Position numbers and translations under genes: made by a program. Below are positions 2,641 through 63,903 of a stretch of DNA of 64,000 nt, in pieces; the first letter of the stretch is position 1; every line of letters begins with the position of its first letter. Below the pieces are notes generated by a model that had not been told where the DNA came from, did not search any database, and worked only from the letters and a program-made list of their open reading frames with translations. This DNA is from Laetmonice hystrix (taxonomy: Eukaryota): positions 17,796,001-17,860,000 of the forward strand of contig OZ249436.1 in NCBI GenBank assembly GCA_965235115.1. The letters run 5' to 3'.

Positions 2641-3385
2641 CATGTATTACCTTTAAATGTCGCCCCTAATACTTGTAACGCCCACGGCCGTATATTGCAT
2701 CAACATGACGGACTGATATGTCCCTAGCTGCCGTTATGTATCGTATATATATCATTATACCGCGCAGTGAGTGGCCGGCGTCGGGCACACACATATTGCA
2801 CCAAGCTGGACAATTTGGTCGTCTGGTAAATGTCAAGGGGGTGGGAGCCTGTACTCGTGGGAATGCGTCACAACTTTCATTCCCTTTTTATTGGTCTGCA
2901 AAATATTTACATTGTGACTCATTTCTTTAAGGGCAACTATCTCCGGGCTGTATACAAAGGGTAATGGTGAATATATTATACATTAGATATCCCGGTATCT
3001 ATACATCTAACAACATTCCCTCGTCCATCCAACGGCCACTACCATCACCATCACGAGTTATAAAATACAGACTCTAACTACTGGCCCAAAACCTAAGTCC
3101 AAATAGTAACAATCTTGGGGGCGTATGTTCCCCTTATCGAAGTTCTCAGAAAATAAATTTTAGCGAATTCACCAAGGAAACCTTGCCAGAAAAGTCAGTT
3201 ATGGAATTGAAAAACCTTTAACCAGGTCAAATTATATAGACCTATTATTACAGACAAGTAAAACAGGAACATATATAAGTGTAATTTTTGTATATATAGT
3301 AATATGCACATTTGGGCCCTAGTAGATCTACTGACGTTTCATCCCGTTCGCCGACTGATCCACACGTGCCTTTGGAATATTTGGT

Positions 3386-3672: not shown

Positions 3673-4254
3673 TGGATACAGACTTATTAATCCCAACACC
3701 AACGTCCACCCCCAAAATATGTGTACGTCATTGAATCCGGAATCCGGACCGTACTGCCGTATGCTGACCGAAAACCGTACCATGTCCGCATAACGTCGCG
3801 AGAGGACGCACTGCCCTGTATTGTGTTCTCATGTCGAGGTGTCCATCCGGTTAACGTGACACCGTGGTGACCCGAAGGGTCGGAAGACTGACCCTACACT
3901 GAGCACTCCGGACTGTTCTCAAGTTGTTTTGGCGTCTGTATTCTCCACTGACCCCCACCCCGAACCCCAGCCCCACCCCCACCCCCGCGAATACCTGGGC
4001 CGGGAATGGGGTCCGGGTACAGATATAGTCAGGGTTGTAGGCCTATAACTCTGTAACTAGACGCTGGAGAGACTGGGAATGGTACACCAGAAGTCAGGAC
4101 GTGACGTCGATGGTCGCCAGACTGGACGTCGACGGGTCGCCACGGTCAGTCGATAAAATCGATCGTGTTCCGCTCGGAGAAAGGTTCAGCAGGAAGTCGG
4201 CCCTAGACGGACAGCCGTCGATTATACGAGACTTGAGCATCGACTCGCTCTCCG

Positions 4255-4497
4255 CTTGGGTAAAGGAATGTACAAATTGACCGGTCGCTAGTGGATGTAC
4301 ACATTAACCGGTCTCTCGTTGGGTAAAGGAATGTAGGCCTACACATGAACTTGGTCCGTGGTGGGGGAATGTACCAATTGAAAAGTCTGTGGTGGGGGGA
4401 AGGAATGTACAAATTGAATGTATAAGTTGGACGGTCTCTGGTTGGGTTAAGGAATGTACAAATTGGCCAGTCTCTAGTGGGATGAAGGAATTACAAA
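4255..4497. repeat. Degenerate ~40-bp tandem repeat (GGAATGTACAAATTG core)
   Basis: GGAATGTAC-like core recurs about 6 times with variable spacers. Confidence 0.75.
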
Positions 4498-9381: not shown

Positions 9382-9652
9382 GTTTCAAGGGAGTCGCCGT
9401 TTTATTTTGAGAGAATGAGACCCTTTTAGTAACTTTGGGTAGGCCTATGAATGCACACACACACACACACACACTATAATTCGATGCTAGAATGAATGAT
9501 TTCGATAGCGTTATTATGTGTTATTCGAATATACAATATGTATATAAGGCGTCACCAAGCTCACAAAATTCCTCTGACTGGAGTATGTCTTTAATCAATA
9601 GCCACAGTAGGATTTGTAAACCTATAGCACCGCTCACCTGCACGGAACGCCA

Positions 9653-11317: not shown

Positions 11318-12762
11318 TAGTTCTTTGATTTGAAAATTATCGTTTTATAGCTGTGTCTGAATTGCCCTTTAAAATACAGCCCTGCTTGGGAAGCAGAGAA
11401 AGCGCCTGTGTTCGTCAGGACTCGTACATGCTCATGCTTCATCTTACCGCAGGTAAATACTTGTAACACGAGTCGGTCCGGACTCCGGTCAAAGCGACTT
11501 GTAGTCGGCGGCCGTCCCATGGCATGCCGACGGCCCATAGCGGCTGACTGCCCGTTTTCTGTTCGTGGGCTCCAGGAGTAGTATATGGAAATGTTGGTTT
11601 GTGTCGGGGTTTGCGTGCAGGAGAGCAGGCTCCGTGAACCTTGGCTCAGTGGCCCAGGCAATACCTCATTCTGACGGTGGTCTCTTTATGACACGTAGGA
11701 GGGGAGGGGGCAGCACACAGACAGACTGACTGCTCTACTGTCGTGACATACCACAACACGGGACAGAAATCTTTAACGTCACTCGGCCCTAGCAGAACGT
11801 GCGGCAGTAATATAGGCAAGTCACTTACTGGCTCTGTGCACATGGGTTCACGCATGAGGAGGCTACCCACTCAGATGGGTGAAGGCTCAACCCATAATTG
11901 ATAAAAGATTAACCCATAATGGGGTACTCTCAGAACTAATCCGACAGGTGGCGCTGTCAGGAACTACGCCATGCAGTAGGCCTGGCTAGGCTTGGCTTAG
12001 CCTGGCTGGAGGCTCTGCTGAACCACACGTTAGCTTATCACAGATTGTGAGCATAGTAGCAACCATTAACAGAAGAAGCATCACGACATCGAGACATAGA
12101 AGATTGCCCTAAGTCTGAATAGACGAACTGAAGGTCTTTTAGCAGACTAGAAGTCTAGGCTATATTGAGGCACAATCAAATCACGTGGTCAAAACATTGA
12201 CCCTGCTAACTGCCGACAGTAGGCCTACCTTATGGGCGTAGACTAAAGATAATAGACAAGTCTTCAGTTCTGTACGAGGGGTATTTCATGAAATATCACA
12301 TTTCAGATACCTACGCCACGTTAGGTGTTCATTTGCATGTTATTCCAATAGTTACAAAAGTTGAAGTGACAGCTGGAACTCCGCCATTTTGAATGTGACG
12401 CTAGTCTAGGCTGATTGGTTCTGACAATAGGTCTAGCCTAGAACCGGTAACATTGATACAAATAATGGTTTTTAAAATTTTTGTCATCTTTTAAATTAGG
12501 TATCTTTTGATGTCGAAACCAAAAGAGACATATGTCTGCACTTTTCACGATGTCTGAATATTACAAACGACCCGAAAGAAGTGTAATCGTGGCTTGATGG
12601 CAGCCACCCTATCCTTTACAATAGCAACCTCGTTTTTGGATGGCTTAGTTGGTGGAAGCGCCACCTTCCGAGTGTTTTGGCGTATAGTACCCCATTAGTG
12701 AAGGCTCATCCAATAATTGGGGAAGGTTCATACAATAATTGGAGAAGGCTCAACCTAGAAAA

Positions 12763-16410: not shown

Positions 16411-19400
16411 AACTTACACTGTCCTTTATAATGCCCCCTCACACCGACTGACACCGGATAATGTCACCCTATAATGCCCCCCCCCCCGTGATATCCCGCT
16501 ATTCGCGCCACCATGTGTAGGCATGTCGTCCTGCCATCCATACAGCTAAGTCAGAGGATGCTATATAAACAGTATATTGATATTCTGGCAGCAGTTTACC
16601 TGCGTCCCTTTGATGTGTAATGATGAAGGTGTTAGGCGCGTTCCAATAGCTCTCCTAACACACACCTGGTCCAACAGGTGACTGAGCGTTCCTCTGACAC
16701 CGTGAAACACGAGCAGCACGTGACGGCAGCGGTCGTTCCATCCACAGTGAAGTGTTGTTGACTGAAGCTCCGCTGGCGCCCATGTTTTAGTCAAATGCCG
16801 GTAACGGAGTTCGTCAAACAACCGCTGCCTCCTGTGTTAGCCTTGAAACATGATCCGATGGTTGCCGAGTTGTCGACCGGTTAGTGCCGGGGTTTTGTAC
16901 GTTCGTCTCTCAGTAAACACGAGACCGATACCCCCCCCCCCCAGCCCCTGTACCCGTACCCGTACCCCCAACCCCCGCCGACCAGATGAACTCCGAGTGG
17001 CGCCTTATCAGGTACAAGTAGGCCTATTCAATCGTTCAGGGACCAGTTTCACTGCAAAGTTTTCAATAATAATTTCATTAGCGACTCCATTCGTATTAGA
17101 TGGATTAGATTAGATCGTATTAGTAAATTAGAGAGTAAATTACCCCTGCCCGGTTAGCCATTAAAATTCATTTCTTGCCGTTTAAAAAAAGTTTATCTCT
17201 ATGAAACGAGAACCACTGAGGCCTCCTGTGCGGCTATAGTCTAGGTCGACGGCAGACACCAGCGCCATCTCGACGAGCCGGTGATATAGGCCTAGGCCGA
17301 CATCTCCGGGAAGTGACACGGATCCACTGCAGGGCTGTAGACCTGGACGATGAGTTCAGAAAAAATACCTTAAATCGGTGAGTTAAAGGCTACATGTCAC
17401 GTGAATAGCACTGCTTATTGTGATCTGGTAGAGAGGCAGGCCGACTTCCTAATCAATGACTATACAGGCCTACTATAGGAGTCTACAGTTTCACACACTC
17501 ACGAGACATAGACCTATAATAACAGACCCATTGGCTCATTCGAGGGTTATATGCGGTAACACAAACTGGGGTAGATTCAGCGACTCTCGTATTAAAGGGT
17601 TTATGTCACCCTGGATGAGCGTTCCGGGAAGCCAGTTCGACCTGGTTTCACGCTTACCTCGTCAAAATCTATGCCCCTTCTGTCCCGAGGATATCCTAGG
17701 TTTAATATACGTACCGGTATGTATTGTAAACAGACAGCAGAGAAATGCACTGTCACCTTCACATTCCACATTTCTTGTCGGGAACACTCAAAAAACAACG
17801 CTGCCTTCCCCCTCGGCCATTGCAACGGGTGAGATGATCACGTGATTGCGGCTATAGCCTCGCGTTCTGTGAAAAGGGCGTAAAGTTGCCCGGCTAAAAC
17901 TGTATGTGTAGGTGGGCTGCAGGTCTAGGAAAAGACGCGCCTCATTCCAAATTTTCTTCTTTTTTTAAATATTGCTATGGAACATAATTACCAGACTATA
18001 TATACAATCAGTATTTTCGCCAACTTGTAAAATGTATATGAAATAATTGACATAAACCCTTTAAATAGACCTACATCGCGTTTCAATCTGTGGCAATCGG
18101 TTCATTCACAAGTTGGAGTAGGCCTAGATCTATCTAGTTTTACGGGCTTCTCTCGCAACCATTGGAACTTGGCGTTACATTGACGTCAGTGGTCGTCGAT
18201 GTTTGTTTGCTACGATCTCACGGACGCTAACATCGATATACTGAGGGGTGTAACGTTCACCCTCACTCACCGGTCCCCACCTGGCTAGACAGACTCGGGT
18301 TTACCCTATGCGCGGACTGGGTGGGGGTTGTTTACGTGCTCAGCCCCCCCCCCCCCCACCACCACCACCACCAGCGGGCACCGGAGGCGATGTGTGCGCA
18401 CGCGCGGCAGTGACGCCTGCGGCCGCCAGAGGTCGCCACTAGCAGTCGGTGATGAAAGGCTGTCAACATGTTATCGTCTGGGGTCTGGCTTCATTGGCCG
18501 CGCGGCGACGTAGACCGCGCCAGTGGGGGTGGGAGAGTCGGTATGGAGGGGGGGGGGGTACGGAGGGGGTACGGGGGGTTCGGGGGGTGCGAGGGGTACG
18601 GGAGGGGTGGATGTAAACCGACACGATTACCCGGCGCGCCATGGTATCCCCAATAGAACACGTGCTATTTCTGAGTGTGGTCGATCAGCTACCTCCCGGG
18701 ACCTTGTCTCTATGTTTGGGCATCCCTTACCTTCACCGCCGGGGCTTGAGGCGAGGATCGGCCGGGAGGTCTGCCCGCCCTGCCCGCCGGCCGCCTATAC
18801 TCGCATGCCAGGCGGCTCGCCCGTCGAGTTACCACCAATATCAGTAACCTCTATAACCCGCTCGGACAGGTCTCAGCGGGTTCCACATTCTCCAGTACAC
18901 GGGCTCCAGGTAAACAAGCCACGCGTCAGAACTCCTGACCGCCCCACCCCCACCCCGTCCTGACCCTGGCAGTCTGAGAACGAGTTGACAAGATTCCCAC
19001 CTTCATACTGATCCATACTCTGCCAGCATCCCCACGTCCACCCTACATGCCTAAACCATCTGTGCCCCCCCCCCCCCCCCCGCCAAACACCCTCCCCTCT
19101 CCCACCAGGTTGGATTAGATTAAAACTACCCCAGTCCATCCCGCCCCGGGGGATCGGGGTGTGGCCACGACTGGACGCCCAGAATAGACCCTAGTCGAAT
19201 CAAGAAGAAGATTATGACCTATAGAACTCAATCGACACGTGGAGAATCCCTATACGCATTATCAAAAAATGATCTTATTTTCTTCCCCAATCCACCTGCC
19301 CTCCGTATACTAACCTCGAATTAAAAATCCACGTTTTTCGTGCCCCCTCCCGACAATCAATCGTGCCGGTCGTCAGGTAGTGTTTGTCGACGTCCTCGCC

Positions 19401-20455: not shown

Positions 20456-21227
20456 TCCAAGGTTGAATACGATACCAGTATGTGGAGCACATTAATATTA
20501 GCCTACAGGTATTCCTGGGGAACCATATGGACTCCTTGGCAATGATTCCTGGAAAACCTGTGAATTTACCGGTAAATGATCATAAGGACTATAAACACAG
20601 AATGCTGGTTGTTGAGTGGTGTAGGAGGAAGATGTCCGGATCGAGGGAGGCCGGGCCGGGGGGGGGGGGGGGCTTCCCGGCCCGGAGTGGGGGAGGCCGG
20701 GCCGTGGGGGTGGGGTGGGAAGGCCGGCCGGGGGCAGGGCGGCTGTAACAGTATCCCCCGAGGTCAGGTTACTGTCCAGTGTCCCGCGTCTCTCCAGGAA
20801 TGTAGACGCGTCCATCCCCAGGGATGAGTACCTAGGTCTATAACGGGACGATCATGGGACGCACGCGCCGACCGACGCTCGGACAGGGGTCTCGCAACCT
20901 AATCCCTGCGCGTCCTGCACGTGCTGTTCCTGGCCTCTGAGATACATTATACGGCCTGGCCCGGGACGGGCAGAGACGGAGGGGGCGGGCAGGCCGGCCG
21001 GCCAGCCACTGGCTACAGTCTGAATATAGCATGTCTCTACGGATAGACAGACACCTCTGCCGGGAAGTCAGAGCACAAAATGTACCGCAAACTGCGAAAA
21101 GGTACCATAATTATAGTCGAATAAATACGGGAGAGGTCATGGCAGTCGTAGTAGTCATAATTATACAGCAGTCATATATCGCAAACAGAGCAGTCATAAG
21201 TCCTAAATCAATACAGGACAGGGGCGT

Positions 21228-22690
21228 TTCCCAGACCTGGGTAACCTCCCACCTGGTCTGTTCCCCAGACCTGGATAAACTTCCACCTAGTCTGTTCCCT
21301 ATAGACCTGGATAACTTCCCAACAGGTCTGTTCCCCAGACCTGGGTAACCTCCCACCTGGTCTGTTCCCCAGACCTGGATAAACTTCCACCTAGTCTGTT
21401 CCCTATAGACCTGGATAACTTCCCAACAGGTCTGTTCCCCAGACCTGGGTAACCTCCCACCTGGTCTGTTCCCCAGACCTGGATAACCTTCCACCTGGTC
21501 TGTTCCCCAGACCTGGATAAACTCCCACCTGGTCTGTTTCCCAGACCTGAATAACCTCCCACCTGGTCTGTTCCCCTGACCTGGATAAACTCCCACCTGG
21601 TCTGTTCCCCAGACCTGGATAAACTTCCACCTAGTCTGTTCTCTATAGACCTGGATAACCTCCCAACTGGTCTGTTCCCCAGACCTGGATAACCTCCCAC
21701 CTGGTCTGTTCCCCTGACCTGGATAACCTCCCACCTGGTCTGTTCCCTAGACCTGGATAACCTCCCACCTGGTCTGTTCCCCAGACCTGGATAACCTTCC
21801 ACCTGGTCTGTTCCCCAGACCTGGATAACCTCCCACCTGGTCTGTTTCCCAGACCTGGATAAACTCCCACCTGGTCTGTTCCCCAGACCTGGATAAACTT
21901 CCACCTGGTCTGTTCCCCAGACCTGGATAAACTTCCACCTGGTCTGTTCCCCAGACCTGGATAAACTTCCACCTGGTCTGTTCCCTAGACCTGGATAACC
22001 TCCCACCTGGTCTGTTCCCCAGACCTGGATAAACTTCCACCTGGTCTGTTCCCTAGACCTGGATAACCTCCCACCTGGTCTGTTCCCCAGACCTGGATAA
22101 ACTTCCACCTGGTCTGTTCCCCAGACCTGGATAAACTTCCACCTGGTCTGTTCCCCTGACCTGGATAACCTTCCACCTGGTCTGTTCCCCAGACCTGGAT
22201 AACCTTCCACCTGGTCTGTTCCCCAGACCTGGATAACCTTCCACCTGGTCTGTTCCCCAGACCTGGATAACCTTCCACCTGGTCTGTTCCCCAGACCTGG
22301 ATAACCTCCCACCTGGTCTGTTCCCCAGACCTGGATAACCTCCCACCTGGTCTGTTCCCCAGACCTGGATAAACTCCCACCTGGTCTGTTCCCCAGACCT
22401 GGATAAACTTCCACCTGGTCTGTTCCCTATAGACCTGGATAACCTCCCAACTGGTCTGTTCCCCAGACCTGGATAACCTCCCACCTGGTCTGATCCCCTG
22501 ACCTGGATAAACTTCCACCTGGTCTGTTCCCCAGACCTGGATAAACTTCCACCTGGTCTGTTCCCCTGACCTGGATAAACTCCCACCTGGTCTGTTCCCC
22601 TGACCTGGATAAACTCCCACCTGGTCTGTTCCCCTGACCTGGATAACCTTCCACCTGGTCTGTTCCCCTGACCTGGATAACCTTCCATCT
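21228..22690. repeat. 34-bp minisatellite, ~43 copies
   Basis: Unit TTCCCCAGACCTGGATAACCTCCCACCTGGTCTG; source of all ORFs at 21.1-22.7 kb. Confidence 0.98.
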
Positions 22691-22857
22691 GCAATCCTTT
22701 TTCTTTTATAATTCTTTTTTAAAGCATATTTTTGTTTGGTTTTAGATACAACATTAGGACAAACGGACTAATAAAGCAGGCTCAGAATTCCGACGAATAC
22801 GCTATATTTCCGTCAGGTGCAGACTCGATCAGCTATCAAACTTGACGAGAGAGTTGG

Positions 22858-24125: not shown

Positions 24126-25786
24126 TCAAAGTTATAACCCGATCATAAACAGTGTATAGATAATAGATACACACACCCATGCCTGTAAAAAAACCTCATC
24201 ATTTAACGATAGGCCTACCATTCGTGCAGTCTTCGTCAAATAGTTTAGCAAATTGTATTTTCCGAATCAATTTATATGTAGGTCCTAGCAGAACATGGTT
24301 AATGAACTAGAAGAAGTGTGTTTGACATTGAAATTATAACAACCTATAACATTTCCACGTCATAGTCGGTTAATCCCGCAGACGATGTCGATGACTGTCA
24401 AATGGAGGTTGACTCGTCCCACGTGACCTTCGTATGATATGATGTTAACCTCACCTCCCCAGGTGGCGCGGTGATCGTTTTTTACGAGTACAGGCACGGG
24501 CGTGCGCGTGTTGTACTCCGGGCCACGTCACGCATGCGTACTGCAGGCGGCGGGGAGTGGTGGCCTCTGGTCACGTGACGTCAGGCATCAAGTGGGCCGG
24601 AATGTTGAATTATATACCAGTCTGGTCTGGTTAAAATAATGTGACTCAATCATATAGGGCGATAATGGGGACGTTTTAGAATGTCTCCAATCAGATATAG
24701 TTATAGCAACCCAGTGGTATTGAACCCTGGCCTACGATTAGCATGTATGTACACCCGTTAGTAGGAATGGTTAGTTGATTGGGGTGTTAGGTAGTTTGGT
24801 AGGCAAGTGAATGTATTGGTCGTGGCGTGTTTCCAGTTTATCAAAGACCCAGAATAAATGAGTCCGCAGCAATCTCAGGATTGCTAAGTGACTCATTGAT
24901 TGAGTGCCGTAACAGAGAACTCGGTGATTGCACCCTTACCTGTTAGAACCACTTAATCCATTTCTCTCACAAACTTGTAATAAAAGTTTAAAACATTAAG
25001 ATCCAATACTGAAGTAGATTTCCTGAACCTGTTTGGGTAAAGTAGTTCATTTTAACCAAGCATTGATTTCTTACAGTTTCGTAGATAGCACGTAGTTTAT
25101 TTCCAGACAAGTCTGTAGTAAAGGGCGCAAGCATCTCACCAAGTAACTTTTACAGTGAACGGTGTCTGGCCTGCATCCTAAGTCAGTTAGTGTTTCCGAA
25201 ACACGTTGTAAGTCAGTTTAGTGATAGACCATTCGATTGCGCTCGGAGCGTTCCCCAAATTACTATGACATTAGCGAGATCTTCTCGACATCTTACCGGC
25301 ACTTCCGGCAGCGTTCCGCACACAGCGCCCTCTGCCGGACCGGAACTCAGGTTTGATGCACACGCACCTGTCCACCGCGACAAGTTCTCACACAAAAGGG
25401 CAATTACATTTAAAAAAGAGGGGAACTTCCACTTCCGTGCGCTGAGGCTAGGTTCACCGTTCCAGACGTTTTTTTTTCTCCCTCTGACCGACCAGATGGT
25501 TGAGGGAACGCCTGTTGTTGACAGCCAACACTTTACCTTCACTTGTACCACATCTAACCCATTGTAAGTATGGCGACGGCTACTCGTCCTCAGACATATT
25601 GCGGCGTACACTTGGAGACCATTAAGGTAGTTGAAGGCCCGTCATTACCAAGACAGCCTGTCACTGACCTCCACCGACCATTCTGTCGGCCGACTGCGGC
25701 TGTCGGTCGGTGGTAAAGGATGGTTTCCGTGCCAGGCCATCAGAGGATAAGAAAGGTTTCAGACACACAACAAATACCTCGCTCAC

Positions 25787-26400: not shown

Positions 26401-28003
26401 CACGCAATCGTCGACAGCCAGGCGTGCATAAGCACCGTGAGCGATGAGTAAAAAAAAACTCGACTGGACTGAGCACATACGGCCGGCATTGTGTCGGACT
26501 GGCCAACCCTGCACTGAGGGGGGTTGGGGGTGGGGGTGGATGGGGTGGGGGCCGCTGCCCCCCGGCAGGTGTGAGTGTGAAATGATGTGATTCGGAGAAT
26601 GGCACGCCTTGTGAAAATCATCTGGAAATCAGTTGTCATGAGCTGTTTAAAGTATGTGTATTCATGTAGATTGTACATTTTCATAATATGTAGAGCGCGC
26701 ACGTGCATGCATGTCACATTACATGTGTTTCATTACTCAGTTATTTGGACGCCGCCTGATATTGGGCCCGGTTTCAGAAAATTTAATATCAAGTTAAGCC
26801 CTGCTTAGGGCCTCTCATTGGCTGGTTGAAGCTGAGCAGCAGAGGACCAGCCAACCAGAGGTTTAAGTTGAGATAACTTAAGAACAAATTTCAGAAAGAG
26901 AACAGTCACAGAAAAGTTCGGCAGTTAGCAAGAATAACTTTTTTTTATCCTTTTTTTGCGAGTTCCTGTAATAGGCCTACGGTCATCGTTACCATGACAA
27001 CCCCTTGGTGCTTCCGACAGATGTCCCAGATCACGTCCAAAGTCTCGTCACGTGTCATATCACGTGATAGCGCTGGCGTGCGTGGTCCGGACTGAGGCAG
27101 TGCTATACGGAAGCTTACGGAAGCTGATGGCCTCAGTCATGATACGCCAGGCACAGGGATTGGCCTTTTAACACGCAATGTGTGTGTTGGATTAACCCTA
27201 TTACATTATCACTGATCTACGTATACGACATTTCCTATAGCTTGGCTTGCGGGATTAGTTCATTCCCCCTAGCCCCCCTCCCTCCCCTCCCCACCGGCCG
27301 TCTCTTGGGGGCAGGTTTCCGTGAACTGACCACACCGGCCGTCTCTCGGGGACAGGTTTCCGTGAACTGACCACACCAGCAGGATATTCCTTAACCCGGA
27401 CTTCTGCAGGAGAGGCAGACAAGAGGTCGTTGCCGGACTCGCCCGGTAAATACTAAACTGATACTAATACTAAATTAATACCAATACTTGTACTAATACC
27501 AAAGCTTGCACTCATACAGATACCAATACATGTACCAATACTATAATTAATATTAAAACCAATGTTTAGAGATGCTCCCAGCCTAACCATGCAGGCCCTC
27601 ACCCCTCCTCCTACCCCCCCCCCTCCCGGCCGTTTGTAGAGACCGCCGGAGGTCGGCCATCAATCTGCTTCACACAACAGTGTGCGAGAATCTCGCGAGG
27701 ACCAGTTAACAAGCGCGAGATGTGAGTCAGTTGTTGTGTTCGCGGAGACATAACAAGCTTACACCATTTGTACGGGGCACACAACAGAGCTCTAAACCAA
27801 CCGAGCTCTCCCTCTATATCCCCTCCTCCCATACACCCTGCCCCTAACCTCAGACTCTGACTGAGTCACGCGTTCTCGGTAACACTCTCAACATGGCTGT
27901 CTTTTGGCGAAACCGAGGCTGTGCTCGGGGTCACGTGACACGGGATGTCTGTATCCAGTCCGTAAAGGAGCGATTTAGTGTTGGAGGTTCCTGACTAATA
28001 ATC

Positions 28004-29597: not shown

Positions 29598-32500
29598 AGA
29601 ACAGAAACTGAACAACATACCCTCACATAGGACTGGACGTTATAAAGGACACAAACTAAACAACGCATAGGTCTGGACGTTATAAAGGACAGAAACTGAA
29701 CAACATACCCTCACATAGGACTGGACGTTATAAAGGACAGAAACTAAACAACACATAGGACTGGACGTTATAAAGGGCAGAAACTGAACAACACATAGGA
29801 CTGGACGTTATAAAGGACAGCAACTGAACAACATACCCTCACATAGGACTGGACGTTATAAAGGACAGAAACTGAACAACATGCCCTCACATAGGACTGG
29901 ACGTTATAAAGGACAGAAACTGAACAACACATAGGACTGGACGTTATAAAGGGCAGAAACTGAACAACATACCCTCACATAGGACTGGACGTTATAAAGG
30001 ACAGAAACTGAACAACATACCCTCACATAGGACTGGACGTTATAAAGGACAGAAACTGAACAACATACCCTCACATAGGACTGGACGTTATAAAGAACAG
30101 AAACTGAACAACATACCCTCACATAGGACTGGACGTTATAAAGGACAGAAACTGAACAACATACCCTCACATAGGACTGGACGTTATAAAGAACAGAAAC
30201 TGAACAACATGTACCCTCACATAGGACTGGACGTTATAAAGGACAGAAACTAAACAACACATAGGACTGGACGTTATAAAGGGCAGAAACTGAACAACAC
30301 ATAGGTCTGGACGTTATAAAGGACAGAAACTGAACAACATACCCTCACATAGGACTGAACGTTATAAAGGGCAGAAACTGAACAACATACCCTCACATAG
30401 GACTGGACGTTATAAAGGACAGAAACTAAACAACACATAGGTCTGGACGTTATAAAGGACAGAAACTGAACAACATACCCTCACATAGGACTGGACGTTA
30501 TAAAGGACAGAAACTGAACAACATACCCTCACATAGGACTGGACGATATAAAGAACAGAAACTGAACAACATACCCTCACATAGGACTGGACGTTATAAA
30601 GGGCAGAAACTGAACAACACTTAGGACTGGACGTTATATAAAGGACAGAAACTGAACAACATACCCTCACATAGGACTGGACGTTTTAAAGGACAGCAAC
30701 TGAACAACATACCCTCACATAGGACTGGACGTTATAAAGGGCAGAAACTGAACAACATACCCTCACATAGGACTGAACGTTATAAAGGGCAGAAACTGAA
30801 CAACATACCCTCACATAGGACTGGACGTTATAAAGGGCAGAAACTGAACAACATACCCTCACATAGGACTGGACGTTATAAAGGACACAAACTAAACAAC
30901 GCATAGGTCTGGACGTTATAAAGGACAGAAACTGAACAACATACCCTCACATAGGACTGGACGTTATAAAGGACAGAAACTAAACAACACATAGGACTGG
31001 ACGTTATAAAGGGCAGAAACTGAACAACACATAGGACTGGACGTTATAAAGGACAGCAACTGAACAACATACCCTCACATAGGACTGGACGTTATAAAGG
31101 ACAGAAACTGAACAACATGCCCTCACATAGGACTGGACGTTATATAAAGGACAGAAACTGAACAACACATAGGACTGGACGTTATAAAGGGCAGAAACTG
31201 AACAACATACCCTCACATAGGACTGGACGTTATAAAGGACAGAAACTGAACAACATACCCTCACATAGGACTGGACGTTATAAAGGACAGAAACTGAACA
31301 ACATACCCTCACATAGGACTGGACGTTATAAAGGGCAGAAACTGAACAACACTTAGGACTGGACGTTATATAAAGGACAGAAACTGAACAACATACCCTC
31401 ACATAGGACTGGACGTTTTAAAGGACAGCAACTGAACAACATACCCTCACATAGGACTGGACGTTATAAAGGGCAGAAACTGAACAACATACCCTCACAT
31501 AGGACTGAACGTTATAAAGGGCAGAAACTGAACAACATACCCTCACATAGGACTGGACGTTATAAAGGGCAGAAACTGAACAACATACCCTCACATAGGA
31601 CTGGACGTTATAAAGGACACAAACTAAACAACGCATAGGTCTGGACGTTATAAAGGACAGAAACTGAACAACATACCCTCACATAGGACTGGACGTTATA
31701 AAGGACAGAAACTAAACAACACATAGGACTGGACGTTATAAAGGGCAGAAACTGAACAACACATAGGACTGGACGTTATAAAGGACAGCAACTGAACAAC
31801 ATACCCTCACATAGGACTGGACGTTATAAAGGACAGAAACTGAACAACATGCCCTCACATAGGACTGGACGTTATATAAAGGACAGAGACTGAACAACAC
31901 ATAGGACTGGACGTTATAAAGGGCAGAAACTGAACAACATACCCTCACATAGGACTGGACGTTATAAAGGACAGAAACTGAACAACATACCCTCACATAG
32001 GACTGGACGTTATAAAGGACAGAAACTGAACAACATACCCTCACATAGGACTGGACGTTATAAAGAACAGAAACTGAACAACATACCCTCACATAGGACT
32101 GGACGTTATAAAGGACAGAAACTGAACAACATACCCTCACATAGGACTGGACGTTATAAAGAACAGAAACTGAACAACATACCCTCACATAGGACTGGAC
32201 GTTATAAAGGACAGAAACTAAACAACACATAGGACTGGACGTTATAAAGGGCAGAAACTGAACAACACATAGGTCTGAACGTTATAAAGGACAGAAACTG
32301 AACAACATACCCTCACATAGGACTGAACGTTATAAAGGGCAGAAACTGAACAACATACCCTCACATAGGACTGGACGTTATAAAGGACAGAAACTAAACA
32401 ACACGTAGGTCTGGACGTTATAAAGGACAGAAACTGAACAACATACCCTCACATAGGACTGGACGTTATAAAGGACAGAAACTGAACAACATACCCTCAC

Positions 32501-33065
32501 ATAGGACTGGACGATATAAAGAACAGAAACTGAACAACATACCCTCACATAGGACTGGACGTTATAAAGGACAGCAACTGAACAACATACCCTCACATAG
32601 GACTGGACGTTATAAAGGGCAGAAACTGAACAACATACCCTCACATAGGACTGGACGTTATAAAGGGCAGAAACTGAACAACACTTAGGACTGGACGTTA
32701 TATAAAGGACAGAAACTGAACAACATACCCTCACATAGGACTGGACGTTTTAAAGGACAGCAACTGAACAACATACCCTCACATAGGACTGGACGTTATA
32801 AAGGGCAGAAACTGAACAACATACCCTCACATAGGACTGAACGTTATAAAGGGCAGAAACTGAACAACATACCCTCACATAGGACTGGACGTTATAAAGG
32901 GCAGAAACTGAACAACATACCCTCACATAGGACTGGACGTTATAAACGGCAGAAACTGAACAACATACCCTCACATAGGACTGGACGTTATAAAGGGCAG
33001 AAACTGAACAACACATAGGTCTGGACGTTATAAAGGGCAGAAACTGAACAACATACCCTTACATA
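29598..33065. repeat. ~3.5-kb satellite of 48-bp and 39-bp units (~75 copies) with higher-order duplications
   Basis: Unit CATAGGACTGGACGTTATAAAGGACAGAAACTGAACAACATACCCTCA; the short variant lacks 9 bp. Confidence 0.98.
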
Positions 33066-33922: not shown

Positions 33923-36852
33923 ACACCTGTGAATACAAACAATTAGTTCACAAAAAGGTTTTGAACTGCTCCGGTAAATTTCAAGGAGTATACATTTTTT
34001 CTGTCTGCACCCAGTTCTATACTTTCCACCGTGTGCTAACATTTTTAAACGTTTTTATTACGTTACTTACCCATTCCTGTAGGTAAAAAACCCGCGTGCT
34101 GCAGGAATTGCTCACAATGGGTTCGTATGAGGCGGGTGACAATGATGAGGGTGGGAGACCGCACCCCTTCCTTGATCTCCTTATCCTGTGTCTCCGGCAC
34201 GGTATCATTCCCGGTCATGGCAAGCCCCCCCCCCCCCTCCCACGCCGCCCCCACCAGGCCCAGGATCCCATTAGGCCCTCCCTACGCGTCGTTAGCAGCG
34301 CACACTACAAAAAGCACACTCGGGAAATACTTCCGACTCGGCCAGTGGCCGCTGAGCGAACGTGGCGCGATAGAAAACGAGCGTTCGTAGAGTGTGATAA
34401 ATCGGTCGGTTTCAAAGACCGACGCATGTCGTTTCTCATATTTTTCTTTTAGCGACGACATGGCAAACGTTCCTACCAATAAGTGGGTCAACAGCTTCAT
34501 GATCACGTGATTACAACACGTTCACGTATCTTCCATCCTCACAAGGGCTTTCCTTTGGAAACTTTTGTTTCCTTTTCTCTGTGTGTCTAATTAAGTAAAC
34601 CGCGTACGTTCGTGATTCATGCTGCAAGGACATGACTGTTGGCACGTTTGCTGTACGGGATGCTCTTGTGACGTCATAAGTGATGTGGATACACAACTAC
34701 GTGACGCTTTAGTGTCACGTGATGCTTATGACAGGCCCCCGGATGGACAAGTCAGTCCCTTCCCCAACAACTGCCTTCAGTCGTACCGTGCACTATAAAA
34801 AATGTCAGAGCATCGCGCATCCTGCATTCTACCCCTTGAGCTCAGCCCAGGCTAAACTGCCGGAAGTTGACCTTGAGGTCAAGCTTATGAATATTAATAG
34901 GGCCTGGCATCGTCGTCATAGACTCACCACCCACACTAAACGGTCCTCACCAAAGGCTTACTTCTCGCAAAAATGCCTGATAGCCTTGCCTAGTTCGCTG
35001 TTAAACCAATGTGTCCCTCCTTAACAATAGGCCTACAGTTTGTATCACTCTGACTGTCTTGATACGGGTTTAACACGCGAAATTCCAAAGTTTAACTCCC
35101 CTGATTTCAGCATCGTCGCTTCGCACTGTCATCCAAACATTGGCCTGGTCGGCCCGGTGTTGCAGGCGCTGGCTGTCGGTCTCGGCCTCTGCCGTGCCCG
35201 TGGGTTAAGGTTATAGGTCGGGATAGGGTTATAGTTATAGTGTGTGTTCTTGCAGCCCTGTCAACTCAAAGTTGTTCCTCCCACTGTCACTAGTGTCAGG
35301 ATTAAATGCCTACCCGTTGCTGCTATCGTTGGCTTCGCCATATTGCTTTAACAACAATAACTTTACTAGGGACTTTCCTATTGGCTAACCAGAAATGCAC
35401 GCTAATTTTTATGAATCGCGCCTCAGGCAGTGCTATGATCTGATTGGTGCTTGCGGGTACTGAAAGTAGGTGGAAAAACAGATGGCGCTGCGAAGTACGC
35501 GCTTCTGAGAATAGGCGGACAGTCGTGAGGCGGGGGGGGGGGATCACTGGAAGCGGTTCAACCCCTAGTGTGGGAGGATGGATAATACTGTGAAAAAAAG
35601 AGAGGGGGGGGGGGGTTGGGCCTGTGCGGTGAGCGGCTGTGGTTTTATCACTGAGTGGGTATGGGTCGGGTCGAGGGTGGACCGGTTTTAAAGCTTGCCT
35701 TTTTACGGCACGATTTACGACACCTGGAGCGTCCATAAATTGAGGCGCTCAAAAGGCCCTTTAACTGGCTCTGTCATACATCACCCGAATTAGGGATATC
35801 CTCGACTTCCCGGCAATAGTTGTTATTATGGGCAGCTACTATCGCCAGTCGGTTTTGAAGTGAAGCCTGAAGGGTTGACTCAAGCGACCCGCCTCCGATA
35901 CAGCCCGGACCACAAACACTCACCCCGTCCCTATGGCTCCATGCTCCTGCCCAGTGTACGTCCAACCTGATTTAGTCCGCTCTCTAAATTGTGCATTTGC
36001 ACGCGCACGCACGCGATATTGGCTTTAAAATATGAATAAATCGACCCAAGGACACAAAATGATAGCTCTATTCTGTAACCTGGACTACCTTTTTTTTTAT
36101 AGTGTACACGAAGTTAGTTGCCCAGCCTGCCCCGATGTCGTGATTTTACCCCGGTAAATGTTCCCCGCATGCCCTGCGGTAATCATCGCCTGGGTCCCCT
36201 CACAGCATACCCGTCCTCTCTGCGGGCTGCCCGATCTAAATCACCATTTCCACACACTACTAGTTGGCGCACTAACTTGGTGGTCAATTCGTTCAGCGAT
36301 GCTTTTAAGTTATATTACACCATGGGGTACCCTGGCATCATCAGCTATAATTACTCAGTGTATAATAAATAATTCAAACAATAAGCCGTTTAGAAATCTG
36401 TCGTATTTAATAACACAACCAGGGAGCAAGCACTAAGCTTAATCAGGACGCACTTTAGGAAGAGTTTGGACTCTAAGCTATTATATACATATGATATCCC
36501 ATATAGACATGTACACATCACATGATTCTCCTAAAGTGTGGGGTTAGTCTTGGGATGGCGGAAAAATGAGCTTTTGCTTCACAAAGAGTGTATGACAAGA
36601 CGTATTTGTTCAGGAGTTTCATGTCGGCAGCTATCTACATTACGCAGTAAAAACAGTTCCCTTTCAAATCATGGGCTCTCAGCTCAGATTATGAGACCAT
36701 AGAGTTGAGTGCTCAACTGCTTATAAGTTAGGAAGATCACCCACTTCTTCCCTGCATACATTTGACGGGAAACTGTTGTCACCTCCACACAGACACGGGT
36801 GTCGCCAGTTACCTCAGTATTACTGTAGCCCGATTTCTGTAAATAAATCCCG

Positions 36853-37425
36853 GCTTGTCCAGTACCCGCGACAAGTCCTTAGTCCCACACACAGACTTGT
36901 CCAGTATACCCTCCACAAGTCCTTAGTCCCCCACACAGACTTGTCCAGTATACCCTCGACAAGTCCTAAGTCCCCCACACAGACTTGTCCAGTACCCTCG
37001 ACAAGTCCTTAGTCCCCCACACAGACTTGTCCAGTATACCCTCGACAAGCCCTTAGTCCCCCACACAGACTTGTCCAGTATACCCTCGACAAGTCCTTAG
37101 TCCCCCACACAGACTTGTCCAGTATACCCTCGACAAGCCCTTAGTCCTCCACACAGACTTGTCCAGTATAGGCCTACCCTCGACAAGTCCTAAGTACCCT
37201 ACACAGACTTGTCCAGAACCCTCGACAGGTCCTTAGTCCCCCACACAGACTTGTCCAGTATACCCTCGACAAGTCCTAAGTCCCCCACACAGACTTGTCC
37301 AGTATGCCCTCGACAAGTCCTTAGCCCCCCCCCCCCCCACAGACTTGTCCAGTACCCTCGACAAGCCCTTAGTCCCCCACACAGACTTGTCCAATAACCT
37401 CCACAAGTCCTTAGTCCCCCACACA
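36853..37425. repeat. ~42-44-bp minisatellite, ~13 copies, with internal inverted repeat GACTTGTC...GACAAGTC
   Basis: Unit TTAGTCCCCCACACAGACTTGTCCAGTATACCCTCGACAAGTCC. Confidence 0.96.
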
Positions 37426-39979
37426 CCGTGCCTAAGCTGACCTATGGCTAGTCTCGCCTGTCGACCCCGGGTTTTCTCGCACCACGTGACACTGTACGAG
37501 AGCTGGTCGCCTGCCAGGCTCAGAGTGCCTGCAGCGACTGATAATGTAAATATTTAAAAGAACCATTACACAATTGGCCGCTCTGATGACCCGAGCACGT
37601 CATGGCGTGGTCAGGGAGGTAAGTGGCCAGGTAGGGCGGCATATGGAGTAGATCTACACCCGTAAAGGTTGACGTCCACAGAGTGGACAGTCTGCCTTTA
37701 ACTACATATCTCCGCAAACACACGGGTCATCTGCTGGCTAATCAGGTCAGCTGAGGTCATCAACCGCTTCACCTTACGTCTTGCTCACGTGACTATAACG
37801 TGAGGTTTGATTGGTCGGTCAGCATGCGTTACTGTCTGGTGTAAGTACGAACCGAGCCTTTCGTAAGTGCGCACACAAAGATACCAGAGTTTAAGTTGTA
37901 AAAATGTTACGAGCCCCCGACTCAGCCTTCCAGACAGATATAAATTACCAAAAGAATGGATACATATCAGCATTTCCTAATTTTAATTTGAAAAAAGAAA
38001 AATCGTTTAAGGTTGTAAAAACATCAATGTGTCTTGATCCATGCAATGGCGTGAAGTTACAATGCTTGCCGACCTACCCTCGGGGTTGTGAAAACACGTT
38101 TGAACGTAGAGCTAAAAACAATATGCCAGACATCTGCAGTGTAGGAATGTACAGTAGGCCCTATCTACTACATCTGCACGGATGGTTCTATGTCGACACG
38201 ACAGCAATGGTCAAAAGTTAAGGACAGTTCCTACTTATTCTCCAGAATAGACAATTGTCAGACGTTGAGGCATGTAGTTGCACTCAGTTTACAGACTGGT
38301 CAATGGTCTAAACTTGAGGAGAGTTGATTCAGAATGGACCCTCCAGTTGCTTCTATTTGACCTGTACGTCCATCTGAGCCTTGATTGGTCGAGAATGAAC
38401 GGATGTTGGCGATCGTGCCTGCGCATGTCAAGTACCGACTTGTCTGAGGGATCGTGTCATAATCAGCCTCTTCATGAGATTTCCCTCGCCCACAGGATAA
38501 TTAATTACAACCATCTATTTACACTGCACCATTACCTAGTTTCTTACCGAGCCGAGAAACGGTCATTTGCACCGTGTTTGGCGAGGATTCTGCCCGGGAG
38601 TGAATCAACCCGTTTCTCGTTTCATGTCCCCACTGACCGCCACCTGTGGGCGCCAGATCACATTCCGATCATCATGACGTCATCATGACGTCATCTGAAC
38701 CGTTCTGAGACGCCAGTGAGGCGTTCCTCGGTGTTACCTTTCACCAATATCGCCAACTGTTGCTAATGCTTCGCTACTTGGCGCAGTGGCGATTCACTAA
38801 GAACTCTCGCAAAATGATGTTTGCGAAATCGGCCATCTTTGATGGCGAGACCTCAAAGCACACCCAGTATTCACTTGACTTGTTAAAAGCTACACTTTCA
38901 TACGGCAACCTTCGATCTTTCACTTTCGTCATTTTGCTCTTCGCCAGTCACGCCAAACTAGACAGGTATCCATGCCACACTAGAGGAGAGGTAGATATAA
39001 CTTCTGACATTTAGAGTAAAACGAACCGCATGTCGCCCCCCCCCGCCAGGTGGCTCCCGGGGAGAATGCCGTCTCAACGTCTTCCTGTCGTTCTGGTCAC
39101 GTGACATTCCTCCAGATCGAGGCTGTCATCTGAAAGGCAGGCGGAGTGACTGCTACTCAGGAAAGTCATACATAAAGACATTAAGGAAACATGTAAGACT
39201 ATTTCATAAAACGGAAGATGTCGAAGATAATTTCCAATATACCATGTCTGTATTTATCCCAAGGGGACCGAAACCTTGTGCAGGCAGACTCTAACCATCT
39301 CTGACGTTTATTTTAGCGAGCCGTTATCGCCGTGGCTGTGCGAGCCTCGGTTTCAATCCGTCATGACGTTGTTCGATCGCAGTGCCTCATCACCCGCGGA
39401 GTTCGTCAACTGGGACGAGAAGTGCCTTTTCCCGACAGCCTCGTCCGCCAATATCTCCAGGAGGGGGTGCCACGAGCCTCGTTCTGGTGCAGAGATGTTA
39501 TCCCGAGGCGGACGTCAGGGAGAATATCACGGATCTCTGAGTAAACCGGCTCAGAGCTCAGGTCGGTGCATGCATCATAATTCTGGCATTAACCTCCCAT
39601 AGGTCTGCCCTTATACACGGTGACACATCCCTTGGCTCTTCACCTCCCCGCCCTGCTGGCCACACTGACACCATGGCAAACTGTCCTTTAGTTTCCTAGA
39701 AGTCCCTTCATTAGTCTGGTGAATGCAATACCAACCTTTTATTGTGACCCACAGATCCCTTAGTATTTCAGAAGTCAGTTTATGGTCTGACAGCCCTTTT
39801 TAACAGTCTATAGATGAAAAAGAACAACTAGTGTCCTAGTCCTAGCAGATCTTCATTTTGTCGCTCAACAGTTCGTTTATGACATCCAGTTTGTAAAACA
39901 CAGTAAAACACAAGTTGGTATCCGACCTTCCCACCTTGAGAGTGTCCTGCAAGCCTGCTCCAGAGTCGGGCCAGTGCTA

Positions 39980-44059: not shown

Positions 44060-44210
44060 AAGCGAACTAACCATACGAAGGTGTTTTCTCACGGCTATAA
44101 CTATCATAAATATTTCTATCTTGGGAGTTCTTGCATTTCTTTGCAGATGTTCTTCCATGGTGGATAGGCCTATGTGGATGGCAGTGGATGGGTTTATGGA
44201 TGGAGGGGGA

Positions 44211-48031: not shown

Positions 48032-48985
48032 TTAGCACAGGGAAATCATAACCAACCCTCGTCTGTCAGCCAACCGATCCATGCGGTCTATAGGCCTACA
48101 ACAACTATGAAATAAACGTCGTCTTCTTCGATGATGTAATTCTGCTGAAATGTTGACTCCCATTCAAAACTTGCAAGCTCTGACTAAAGAATTAAGTTGG
48201 AGTTCTTGCTAGCAGCTGTACTATTTCTGAGAATGTGGAGTGGGGTAGAATGGTGAGGGGTAGAGTCAGCCTACCTGATCAGTTGGGGGGGGGGGGGGGG
48301 TTAAATGATACACTGCCCCCTCCCGTATGGGGGCATGACTTCCATGCTCCTACCAAAATAAAAACCCTCCACTAAATTTGTCTAGTCAAAAGGTAGAAGC
48401 GACATTTTTGGCCAATGATTCAACCTCCTGATTGTATCCTTTCATCACTATCGTCACTTCACAATGCACGTTTATTACTTTATCTATTACCGTTTCAATC
48501 TGTCAGTATTTCAGATAAAGCCGTGGTCAATCCGGTCTGTGACCACAACTGGTCCCTTGAGAACAGGGCCACATTCAATCCTCATGGATTCCGAGAGGAA
48601 ATTGTCTAACGATATTCCTGTGGCTGACGGCAGTGTCATCTTCCTGGCGAATCGTGTGTCAGACCGTGTGTCACGTGATCACCCACCGGAAGCACATTGT
48701 ATCAGAGCTGACGCGCCCCCTGGTGGGTTCACGTGTCACAGGTCGACTTCCCTCGGTAATTGTTCACTTGTGACGAGATCAAACGCCTCAATAACTGCTG
48801 TTGTCTCCGCGGTCTCTTTACCACAAAACGCTGCAGCTTCAAGTTGTCGAGCATGTCGACTACGTCACTAAAACCGGGGTAGTCTGAATCTGTAACGTGC
48901 ACGCTGAATCTGTAAGGTGCACGCTGAATCTGTAACGTGCACGCTGTACGCGTATTGGTGTAGGACTAGTTCAAATACACCGCCT

Positions 48986-55498: not shown

Positions 55499-55569
55499 GC
55501 CCGGTTAGCGCAGTCGTTAGAGCATCCGACTTTTAATCTGAGGGTCGCGGGTTCAAGTCCCTCAGGCGG
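55499..55569 (+). pseudogene. tRNA-Lys(TTT)-derived pseudogene or SINE head
   Basis: GCCCGGTTAGCGCAGTCGTTAGAGCATCCGACTTTTAATCTGAGGGTCGCGGGTTCAAGTCCCTCAGGCG closely follows metazoan tRNA-Lys-TTT. A/B boxes and the CTTTTAA anticodon loop are retained, but the acceptor stem 3' arm is shortened and D/anticodon stems are mismatched. Confidence 0.8.
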
Positions 55570-55619
55570 AATTATATTTTCTTCAGAGAAAAAAAATTAG
55601 GTTACAGACCAGAGGAGGG

Positions 55620-55654
55620 GTTAGGGTTAGGGTTAGCCTAACCCTGACCCTAAC
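55620..55654. repeat. Head-to-head telomeric-type inverted repeat
   Basis: GTTAGGGTTAGGGTTAG-C-CTAACCCTGACCCTAAC, 16/17 pairing. Confidence 0.85.
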
Positions 55655-55819
55655 TGCTGTTACAGATATGTGAATTAATCAAATAAAGACTGCATACACT
55701 GTACAACATTATATTTGATTCCTTCAAGTTGCTCAAGGCATCATCAGGAGGTTTTTTATCACTTCATGGAAAAATGGTTACCCAACGATTTTGAGGGTAC
55801 GGATCCGTACCTTAGAAAA

Positions 55820-55867
55820 ATTTTAGGGTACGGAATTTTACCCATTTTACCCTCTGGCGGAAACCCT
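55820..55867 (-). mobile_element. DNA transposon terminal sequence (right-end-like; hAT-like CAGGG type)
   Basis: Perfect 48-bp reverse complement of 56693-56740. Confidence 0.65.
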
Positions 55868-55885
55868 AGTAATGGGTTTGACTAA

Positions 55886-56292
55886 TGGGCCTTTCACACC
55901 GCAGCCGATGCCAATACCGATGCCGATACCGATGCCGAGGGCGACACCGATGTCCACACCGACCTCGGCTGCAGTGTGAATGATGCACCGATGCCCGACT
56001 CCGATGCCGACATGTAGATCCCGACTGGTTCCCGACACCGGCCCGGCTGGCGGCCGTCCTCCGCGTCGGTGAGGGATTGCTCCGATCCAGATGCACGGGA
56101 ATCTCGGTGGCCGACGTTTGAAAAATAGAGCATGTTCTATTTGCCTCGCCGACGTCGGTGTCGGCCACCGACGTCGGCGTCGGTATCGGCCTTGGTGTGA
56201 ATGCTCCCACTGGAAATAATGTGTTTTAAAAAAAAACCATCGGTGTCGCCGTCGGTATCGGTGCCGGTATCGGCTGCGGTGTGAATGGACCA
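55886..56292. mobile_element. ~407-bp PIF/Harbinger-like MITE
   Basis: Long imperfect TIRs TGGGCCTTTCACACCGCAGCCGAT... / ...ATCGGCTGCGGTGTGAATGGACCA with CCGATR subrepeats; flanked by TAA and TTA. Confidence 0.75.
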
Positions 56293-56691
56293 TTAGTGTA
56301 GCACATGACCTTAAGTAAACTAATAGGCTTCTGATTGACTGGTCTCCTTAGGCTTGACGTAGAAAAAGTTCCGAGGCAAGATTTTGCTTAGGCCTATTTA
56401 CAAGTTCTCCCCCACCCACTGGGTTTAATACGTAAGACCTAATCTTTCCTTGACGTAATCTTTGACTGATTTTTGACATGTGAGAGAGTATTTACTATTC
56501 CTAGAATGAAAAAATACAAAAAGACGATTTTTTTACCACCTGATCTATATTCGGTCTATTTGAAAGAACAGAAACATTTTGTACAGGAAGGTCTACTTTT
56601 GTAATATCTCAGTCAATAGGACAGCCATTTAGCCAAAGATGCTGCCGACACACACAATATGTTTATTGTAACAAGGGTTTTTTCTTCCAGA

Positions 56692-56755
56692 CAGGGTTTC
56701 CGCCAGAGGGTAAAATGGGTAAAATTCCGTACCCTAAAATGTTCCCAGGGTAAAT
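56692..56755 (+). mobile_element. DNA transposon terminal sequence (left-end-like, CAGGGTTTCCGCCAGAGGG...)
   Basis: Inverted copy of 55820-55867. Confidence 0.65.
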
Positions 56756-63431: not shown

Positions 63432-63903
63432 TCGGCTGGCCGGAGTTGCAGGTCGGGAGATGAGGGGTTTAGGACGCCAGCGTCTCAGTAGCTTCAGACG
63501 ACAGAACACCGGCACGTGGTTACACGTGCCTTAACTTCATTATGGCCACTTGATATTCCCCGGGCGGCATTCTTTCAGATCGGGATTGTTGTCATTCCCA
63601 TCAACCCCGCGACTTCCGCCATGTTCGGGCGGCGCAGGGCATCCTGGGAGACGCCGACCTGGATCTCACGTATTCTGGGTCAAGGTCAAACTAACGTGGG
63701 CCCGGCACGAGGTCATGGCTCGGGTCATCGCAGGGATCATTCCAACCAATGCATGCACGCATCGGCAATTTCTTTTCATGGACATTCCTGAAATTTACGA
63801 GGCGATTTTGTGAAACCTGTAGGCCTAAAGCGTTCTTGGTAGATGATATGAAAGTGTCCTTGGAAATGGTCATGGGGGTGCAGACCCCCACCAAACACCA
63901 TAA

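Follow-up and report, generated by a model that had tools for sequence, protein, structure and literature searches.

A TA-GGCC-TA insertion in a minisatellite of Laetmonice hystrix as a probable transposon excision footprint that recurs at unrelated sites

Results

The window analyzed in this work is a 64,000-bp stretch of the Laetmonice hystrix genome (assembly GCA_965235115.1, contig OZ249436.1, positions 17,796,001 to 17,860,000); it is repeat-rich and apparently non-coding, and TRF masks 21,201 of its 64,000 bases. The locus under study is a minisatellite in which one unit bears a short insertion:

36854..37427, no strand: minisatellite of 13 units of 42 or 44 bp, delimited with TRF (44-bp period, 36854-37425) and unit splitting, which provides the ancestral reference
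37156..37189, no strand: imperfect palindrome of the unit, with 8-bp arms at 37156-37163 and 37182-37189; its dyad coincides with the scarred TA, around which 10 of 13 flank positions are symmetric
37158..37207, no strand: unit 8 (50 bp), which bears the insertion and has a TAAG variant common to the TATA-type units 3 and 10
37169..37176, no strand: TA-GGCC-TA scar, a duplicated TA with a palindromic 4-nt filler, +6 nt with respect to the TATA sister units

When the 13 units are aligned, the scar position reads TATA in six of them, TA in three, and TATG, GAA, AATAA and TA-TAGGCCTA in one each, the last being unit 8. The alignment confirms that the unit-8 insertion at TA is real, and it bears out the initial annotation, which had described a six-letter addition at 37169-37176 to sister units reading TA or TATA and a TA duplicated around GGCC. 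The same filler is found again in unrelated contexts. Since the downstream TAAG variant of unit 8 is also present in the TATA units 3 and 10, the parent unit was most likely TATA, and the event can therefore be read as a gain of six nucleotides (TAGGCC, equivalently GGCCTA) at the second TA instead of a gain of eight. Across 26 well-conserved arrays (15,691 bp, 849 TA), only two insertions of at least 4 nt relative to the consensus were detected: the one in unit 8 and a 6-C homopolymer expansion in unit 11. On its own, the unit-8 locus provides a clean demonstration of insertion polarity with a built-in ancestral reference.

Other length variants occur in the arrays. The unit 11 expansion is a 13-C run (37325-37337, +6) attributable to slippage or to a consensus error. 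Units that differ by +TA were seen in three arrays, at 36854-37427 (TA versus TATA), 21226-22691 (four copies) and 29666-33065 (five copies), and could stem from slippage or be filler-less footprints.

The inserted word is not particular to the minisatellite. TAGGCCTA occurs 15 times in the window, compared to 0.68 in shuffled sequences (0 of 100 shuffles reach 15), and 14 times outside tandem repeats, where 0.57 are expected (24-fold, P=2.6e-15). These 14 instances fall in 42.6 kb of non-tandem DNA, which corresponds to about 0.33 per kb or roughly 1 TA in 180. Under order-3 and order-4 models, TAGGCCTA ranks first among the 8-mers that are not homopolymers, while an order-2 model places CACGTGAC above it. 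GGCC accounts for 14 of the 217 TA-NNNN-TA words outside tandem repeats and the next best filler for 4, which makes it the dominant one. Once the 8-mer is masked, words retaining one TA fall to background (AAGGCCTA, GAGGCCTA, CAGGCCTA and TTGGCCTA occur 0, 0, 1 and 2 times versus 0.95, 1.08, 1.25 and 1.26 expected), which indicates that both TAs are needed. After removal of the six bases, 11 of the 15 window sites conform to R-TA-Y, compared to 28% of background TAs (P=3e-4).

Copies of TAGGCCTA with one mismatch number 19 in the window, against about 19 expected, and this lack of an overall excess suggests that most scars are young. The 3-nt companions of the word are not enriched (5 versus 2.95), so the scar product appears to be unusually uniform in this window. 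Among the transition variants of the scar, TAGACCTA/TAGGTCTA (fillers GGTC/GACC) reaches 7 versus 0.94 expected, at 3237, 4518, 12428, 12979, 17509, 18066 and 20833, and the other three variants total 2. These seven sites, for none of which (0/7) a reference copy was found, may represent a second scar type left by a GGTC-ended element, or biased decay. At 12428-12440, TAGACCTA/TAGGTCTA overlaps TAGCCTA.

A reference copy exists for 3 of the 15 TAGGCCTA sites in the window, 11 are without one and the site at 17287 is ambiguous. Besides the unit-8 scar, the sites are:

4038..4045, no strand: TAGGCCTA; reference copy searched, none found
4334..4341, no strand: TAGGCCTA, second in-register case, in a degenerate array of ~36-bp units whose sister units have a single TA
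9440..9447, no strand: TAGGCCTA; reference copy searched, none found
12220..12227, no strand: TAGGCCTA; reference copy searched, none found
17019..17026, no strand: TAGGCCTA; reference copy searched, none found
17287..17294, no strand: TAGGCCTA, ambiguous, in a 32-bp imperfect palindrome and directly followed by GGCC
18119..18126, no strand: TAGGCCTA; reference copy searched, none found
24210..24217, no strand: TAGGCCTA; reference copy searched, none found
26972..26979, no strand: TAGGCCTA; reference copy searched, none found
35028..35035, no strand: TAGGCCTA, third in-register case, borne by one copy of a high-copy repeat, the others having a single TA and then the same right flank
44165..44172, no strand: TAGGCCTA; reference copy searched, none found
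48091..48098, no strand: TAGGCCTA; reference copy searched, none found
56389..56396, no strand: TAGGCCTA within the inverted-repeat element 55808-56752
63820..63827, no strand: TAGGCCTA; reference copy searched, none found

At 4334, the sister units show a single TA after the same left flank; the MAFFT gap spans 11 nt, but the unit at 4289, when aligned with a gap of 6 nt, agrees with the right flank at 8 of 9 positions. At 35028, the other copies of the repeat leave the window sequence just past the first TA in three of three runs and resume the right flank with no GGCC. The loose-end consensuses behind this comparison derive from 25 and 18 contigs, with agreement of 0.62 and 0.61, and joints are seen at 35029 in all three runs. 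The word at 17287 may have arisen by slippage or point mutation instead of being a scar.

These additional sites bear on three explanations that require no transposon. Local replication error within the minisatellite, through slippage or a quasi-palindrome template switch at the unit hairpin, would account for the position of the scarred TA on a palindrome dyad, with a flank symmetry equalled by 0 of 2466 background TAs; folding of the units gives an 8-bp stem, and TA/TATA and poly-C length variants are present in the array. We nevertheless consider it very improbable. No unit contains the GGCC template, and the same filler appears at 4334 and 35028 between asymmetric flanks (2/13 and 3/13). 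The 84 sites analyzed in other animals show no flank symmetry (3.38 versus 3.38), and with about three TAs in each unit, an insertion at the dyad TA carries no significance. A general preference of scars for palindromic flanks was rejected as well, given that its support in the window (P=0.04) is driven by the 37169 site and that none is seen at the 84 other sites. Because other scars lack such symmetry, the dyad position of the unit-8 scar is treated here as incidental.

Assembly or sequencing error, or a chance insertion, was considered as well. Depth over 37152-37348 was 32, 49 and 0 in three contig sets of one sample, with no indel among the rows listed, and these sets, which cover the array thinly, neither confirm nor contradict the unit-8 allele; the 13-C run in nearby unit 11 could itself be a consensus error. 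Such errors would, however, have to generate the most enriched non-homopolymer 8-mer of the window under the order-3 and order-4 models, and TAGGCCTA is enriched in independent public data sets as well, which makes this explanation highly improbable. We assign similarly scant credence to the view that TAGGCCTA is a selected protein-binding palindrome, kept wherever it arises. It is indeed a strongly enriched palindromic 8-mer, and the window is rich in a further palindrome, CACGTG (38 versus 12.6 outside tandem repeats, with (T)CACGTGA(C) likewise strongly enriched), but TAGGCCTA arises by insertion of a whole six nucleotides into repeat copies instead of through point changes, and it is located in arrays and repeats. 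Its origin would remain unexplained by selection.

Independent collections were searched for further instances. Scanning metagenome contigs for three close copies of TAGGCCTA returned at least 119 loci; removal of 8 loci with ORF cover of at least 0.35 and 4 redundant ones from the 119 listed left 107 loci, totaling 240 kb. Tandem repeats and the selecting cluster, together with 100 bases on each side, were masked before counting. Having been chosen for clusters of TAGGCCTA, these loci are biased and document occurrence, not prevalence. Outside the selecting cluster, they contain 86 copies of TAGGCCTA versus 4.6 expected, 81 of the 3-nt class TAGGCTA/TAGCCTA versus 25.6, and 9 of the 5-nt class TAGGCCCTA/TAGGGCCTA versus 1.5, with TAGGTA/TACCTA at 65 versus 89 and TAGGCGCCTA at 0 versus 0.2. 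A series of 3-, 4- and 5-nt fillers is of the kind given by end-joining. The R-TA-Y preference is also present in these loci, in weaker form (36 of 84 sites versus 25%, P=3e-4). Pfam matches in 7 of 27 chosen ORFs, including a ligand-gated channel domain, a SOCS box, G-alpha and a tyrosine kinase, imply that at least part of the loci are animal-type DNA.

Comparison of homologous copies in these loci again yields empty and scarred states. A repeat copy at one locus (L243) bears TAGGCCTA where its homologue at another (L145) has a plain TA, and at L201 one of two inverted copies carries the 5-nt version. An automated empty-site search over the listed metagenome loci retrieved homologues for 6 of 589 TAGGCCTA sites, five of them of low complexity, and yielded one convincing TAGGCCTA case, one 5-nt case and one weak TACATGTA case. 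An all-against-all indel table of the 119 loci among the matches listed comprised 96 indels, none of which was +GGCCTA, the class whose dominance the initial annotation had proposed to test. At loci L142-L260, TACATGTA is also enriched (26 versus 5.6). In Caenorhabditis elegans this word is the scar of Tc1, whose filler, CATG, has other letters than that of TAGGCCTA. TA-flanked CACTGTG...CACAGTG elements at L154, L165 and L217 are possible sources of TACATGTA.

Viral contigs gave 121 matches with two copies, and those viewed (at least three copies) were mostly local repeats; the 20 matches in prokaryote genomes were all or nearly all tandem repeats. A 20-base probe from the high-copy repeat of the window matched 0 viral contigs.

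The element that would have left the scars was sought directly. The initial annotation had suggested a search for inverted-repeat elements bounded by TA|GG...CC|TA, and none with a true TA boundary and GGC or GGCC ends was found in the 64-kb window or in the 119 loci among the matches listed. None of 82 window ORFs (at least 78 aa, outside arrays) reached a Pfam cut-off, and no transposase domain was detected in these 82 or in the 27 chosen metagenome ORFs. In the contig sets and metagenome loci, the same site was observed empty and scarred, never filled with an element.

Several candidate parents were rejected. The only TA|GG..CC|TA pair of the window with a good inverted repeat, 55826-56734, is nested in the longer element 55808-56752, so that TA is not its boundary. 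The segment 35369-35568 has the form TA|GGG..CCC|TA, but its inverted repeat is at most 3 nt and its C-TA-G flanks are unlike those of the scars. Among metagenome loci, L193 shows an 8-bp duplication matching at 7 of 8 positions and is hence not TA-targeted; L143 is unconvincing (12 of 16 positions match and the repeat runs on outside the TA), as are L145 and L186, with GGG ends.

Some of these regions have features of their own. The high-copy composite repeat at 34810-35580, with summed contig depth of up to 65,737 versus about 60 in unique DNA (a roughly 1000-fold difference in some bins), contains the ~200-bp part 35369-35568, which starts with GGG, ends with CCC and has AC-TA ... TA-GT flanks; a +TA insertion follows 35290 in six contigs. 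The region 55808-56752 is made up of nested inverted-repeat elements, with outer arms of 60 nt that are 93% complementary and an inner TA-flanked element at 55885-56293 in AC-TA-GT context. At 17595-18061 lies a 467-bp element with 16-nt inverted ends (two mismatches) in TTAA context, which we take to resemble Kolobok-type non-autonomous elements. Rfam reports a weak tRNA match at 55499-55568 (32.5 bits versus a cut-off of 29), unrelated to the scar and just upstream of a short TTAGGG/CCCTAA inverted patch (~55618-55655); it may be a tRNA-derived repeat.

Discussion

We propose, with a probability of about 0.7, that the 6-nt insertion was left behind as an excision footprint by a cut-and-paste DNA transposon that duplicates TA and whose ends start with GG, probably GGC or GGCC. 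Four properties of the scars favor this reading: the polarity of the insertion, the duplication of TA, the constancy of the filler in unrelated contexts and the R-TA-Y preference. The element would have entered a TATA-type unit at its second TA, which was thereby duplicated; the transposase of the element would then have released it by staggered cleavage a few bases in from either end, so that short element overhangs stayed on the flanks, and sealing of the break by germline end-joining would have produced TA-GGCC-TA.

The filler itself could have arisen in three ways: two GG overhangs may have been filled in, two GGC overhangs may have paired through their terminal GC, or self-complementary GGCC overhangs may have been ligated directly. 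The GG...CC ends put forward in the initial annotation correspond to one of three end chemistries that give TAGGCCTA; the companion words seen in other animals suggest GGC or GGCC, and ends that begin in this way are favored here. GGC agrees best with the occurrence in other animals of 3- and 5-nt companions but no 2-nt class, and a 4-nt stagger fits the near-absence of the 3-nt class in the window and its excess of GGTC/GACC.

Several observations weigh against an excision footprint. About 0.33 scars per kb implies very many cycles of insertion and excision, with no resident copy visible in 64 kb; only 3 of the 15 window sites have a reference copy; the 3-nt companions are unenriched in the window, empty-site homologues are few and the metagenome loci are biased. 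An alternative is an undescribed TA-specific micro-insertion process that involves no stable element, for instance strand transfer that a transposase-like enzyme aborts and at once reverses, or a nuclease that uses a fixed template to add GGCC at TA cuts. The product is very uniform, its density is high (14 in 42.6 kb) and no parent element was seen; the scars show little decay (19 one-mismatch copies versus about 19) and so appear young, yet no young parent lies in the window. Taking both forms together, we regard this process as unlikely: ordinary excision repair would be expected to yield the TA-filler-TA format, the preference for certain flanks and the series of 3-, 4- and 5-nt fillers in other animals, and the parent was sought in 64 kb and in short contigs, so its absence is weak evidence. 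A bolder proposal, to which we give slightly less weight still, is that there is no parent element and that a TA-specific enzyme writes a fixed GGCC and a TA duplication into the germline at a high rate in several animal lineages, the sister words TACATGTA and TACCGGTA (CATG and CCGG fillers) being other versions of its product.

If the scars are excision footprints, small insertions in this genome have a major and very uniform source in cut-and-paste excision, and occurrences of TAGGCCTA can be counted as traces of past transposition, which are overlooked in repeat annotation and could be taken for a binding site in motif searches. The 3/4/5-nt series provides a prediction for the element, with termini of GGC or GGCC, and suggests a rule whereby scars are uniform when excision overhangs can pair with each other. 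In the accessible literature, outside subscription journals and Repbase entries, we found no description of TAGGCCTA as a scar.

Comparison with known systems, based on the available portions of the cited articles, sets apart several transposon groups. For hAT elements of the Ac/Ds type, the footprint should be a palindrome derived from the flanks and varying with the site, whereas the filler described here is identical at unrelated sites (PMC4561436). Canonical PIF/Harbinger (Tourist) elements do not match either, since the scars lack a 3-bp TWA duplication and retain a constant 4-nt filler, so that excision is not precise (PMC4561436). The Tourist element mPing has ends starting with GGCC, according to the primers of that study, as the putative ends here could, but it makes a 3-bp TWA duplication and excises precisely, while the scars conform to R-TA-Y and do not have TTA/TAA on both sides (PMC4561436); of the 30 half-sites at the 15 window sites, 26 have a purine before the TA and 2 have T. 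Stowaway-type elements such as Osmar combine TA duplication with element-derived footprints, like the scars (PMC4561436). The Harbinger-related PHISTA elements of rust fungi also duplicate TA (PMC12730594), and are fungal; TA duplication is thus not exclusive to Tc1/mariner. A table of terminal inverted repeats in PMC10379824 could list matching termini. In Platynereis, PMC3979674 reports heterogeneous, not uniform, Mos1 excision products, which shows that uniform scars cannot be taken for granted in annelids.

The closest format is that of Tc1/mariner elements, to which, at roughly even odds, we would most readily assign the putative element. Their footprints retain 2-4 nt from the start or the end of the element, with TA on either side (PMC6943129). 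A TA duplication relative to the empty site is observed at unit 8, at 4334, at 35028 and between L243 and L145, and the filler, GGCC, is constant, lies within the 2-4 nt range of these footprints and is independent of the flanks. The initial view of an excision scar left by a TA-targeting GG...CC element is partly supported: it holds for the insertion with TA duplication and for its Tc1/mariner footprint format (PMC6943129), while neither the element nor a transposase was found in the window or in the 119 metagenome loci listed. Sleeping Beauty likewise leaves a duplicated TA around a short constant filler, in the footprints TACAGTA/TACTGTA; these are experimental excision products with the 3-nt filler CAG/CTG, whereas the scars reported here have a palindromic 4-nt filler, GGCC, and, numbering about 0.33 per kb, belong to a natural assembly (PMC6943129). 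For the Tc1 element of C. elegans, the +4 insertion scar is given as the typical somatic footprint (78%), so that a 4-nt filler is dominant there too (PMC13148408). In the worm this outcome is somatic (PMC13148408), whereas the scars in this genome appear to be inherited.
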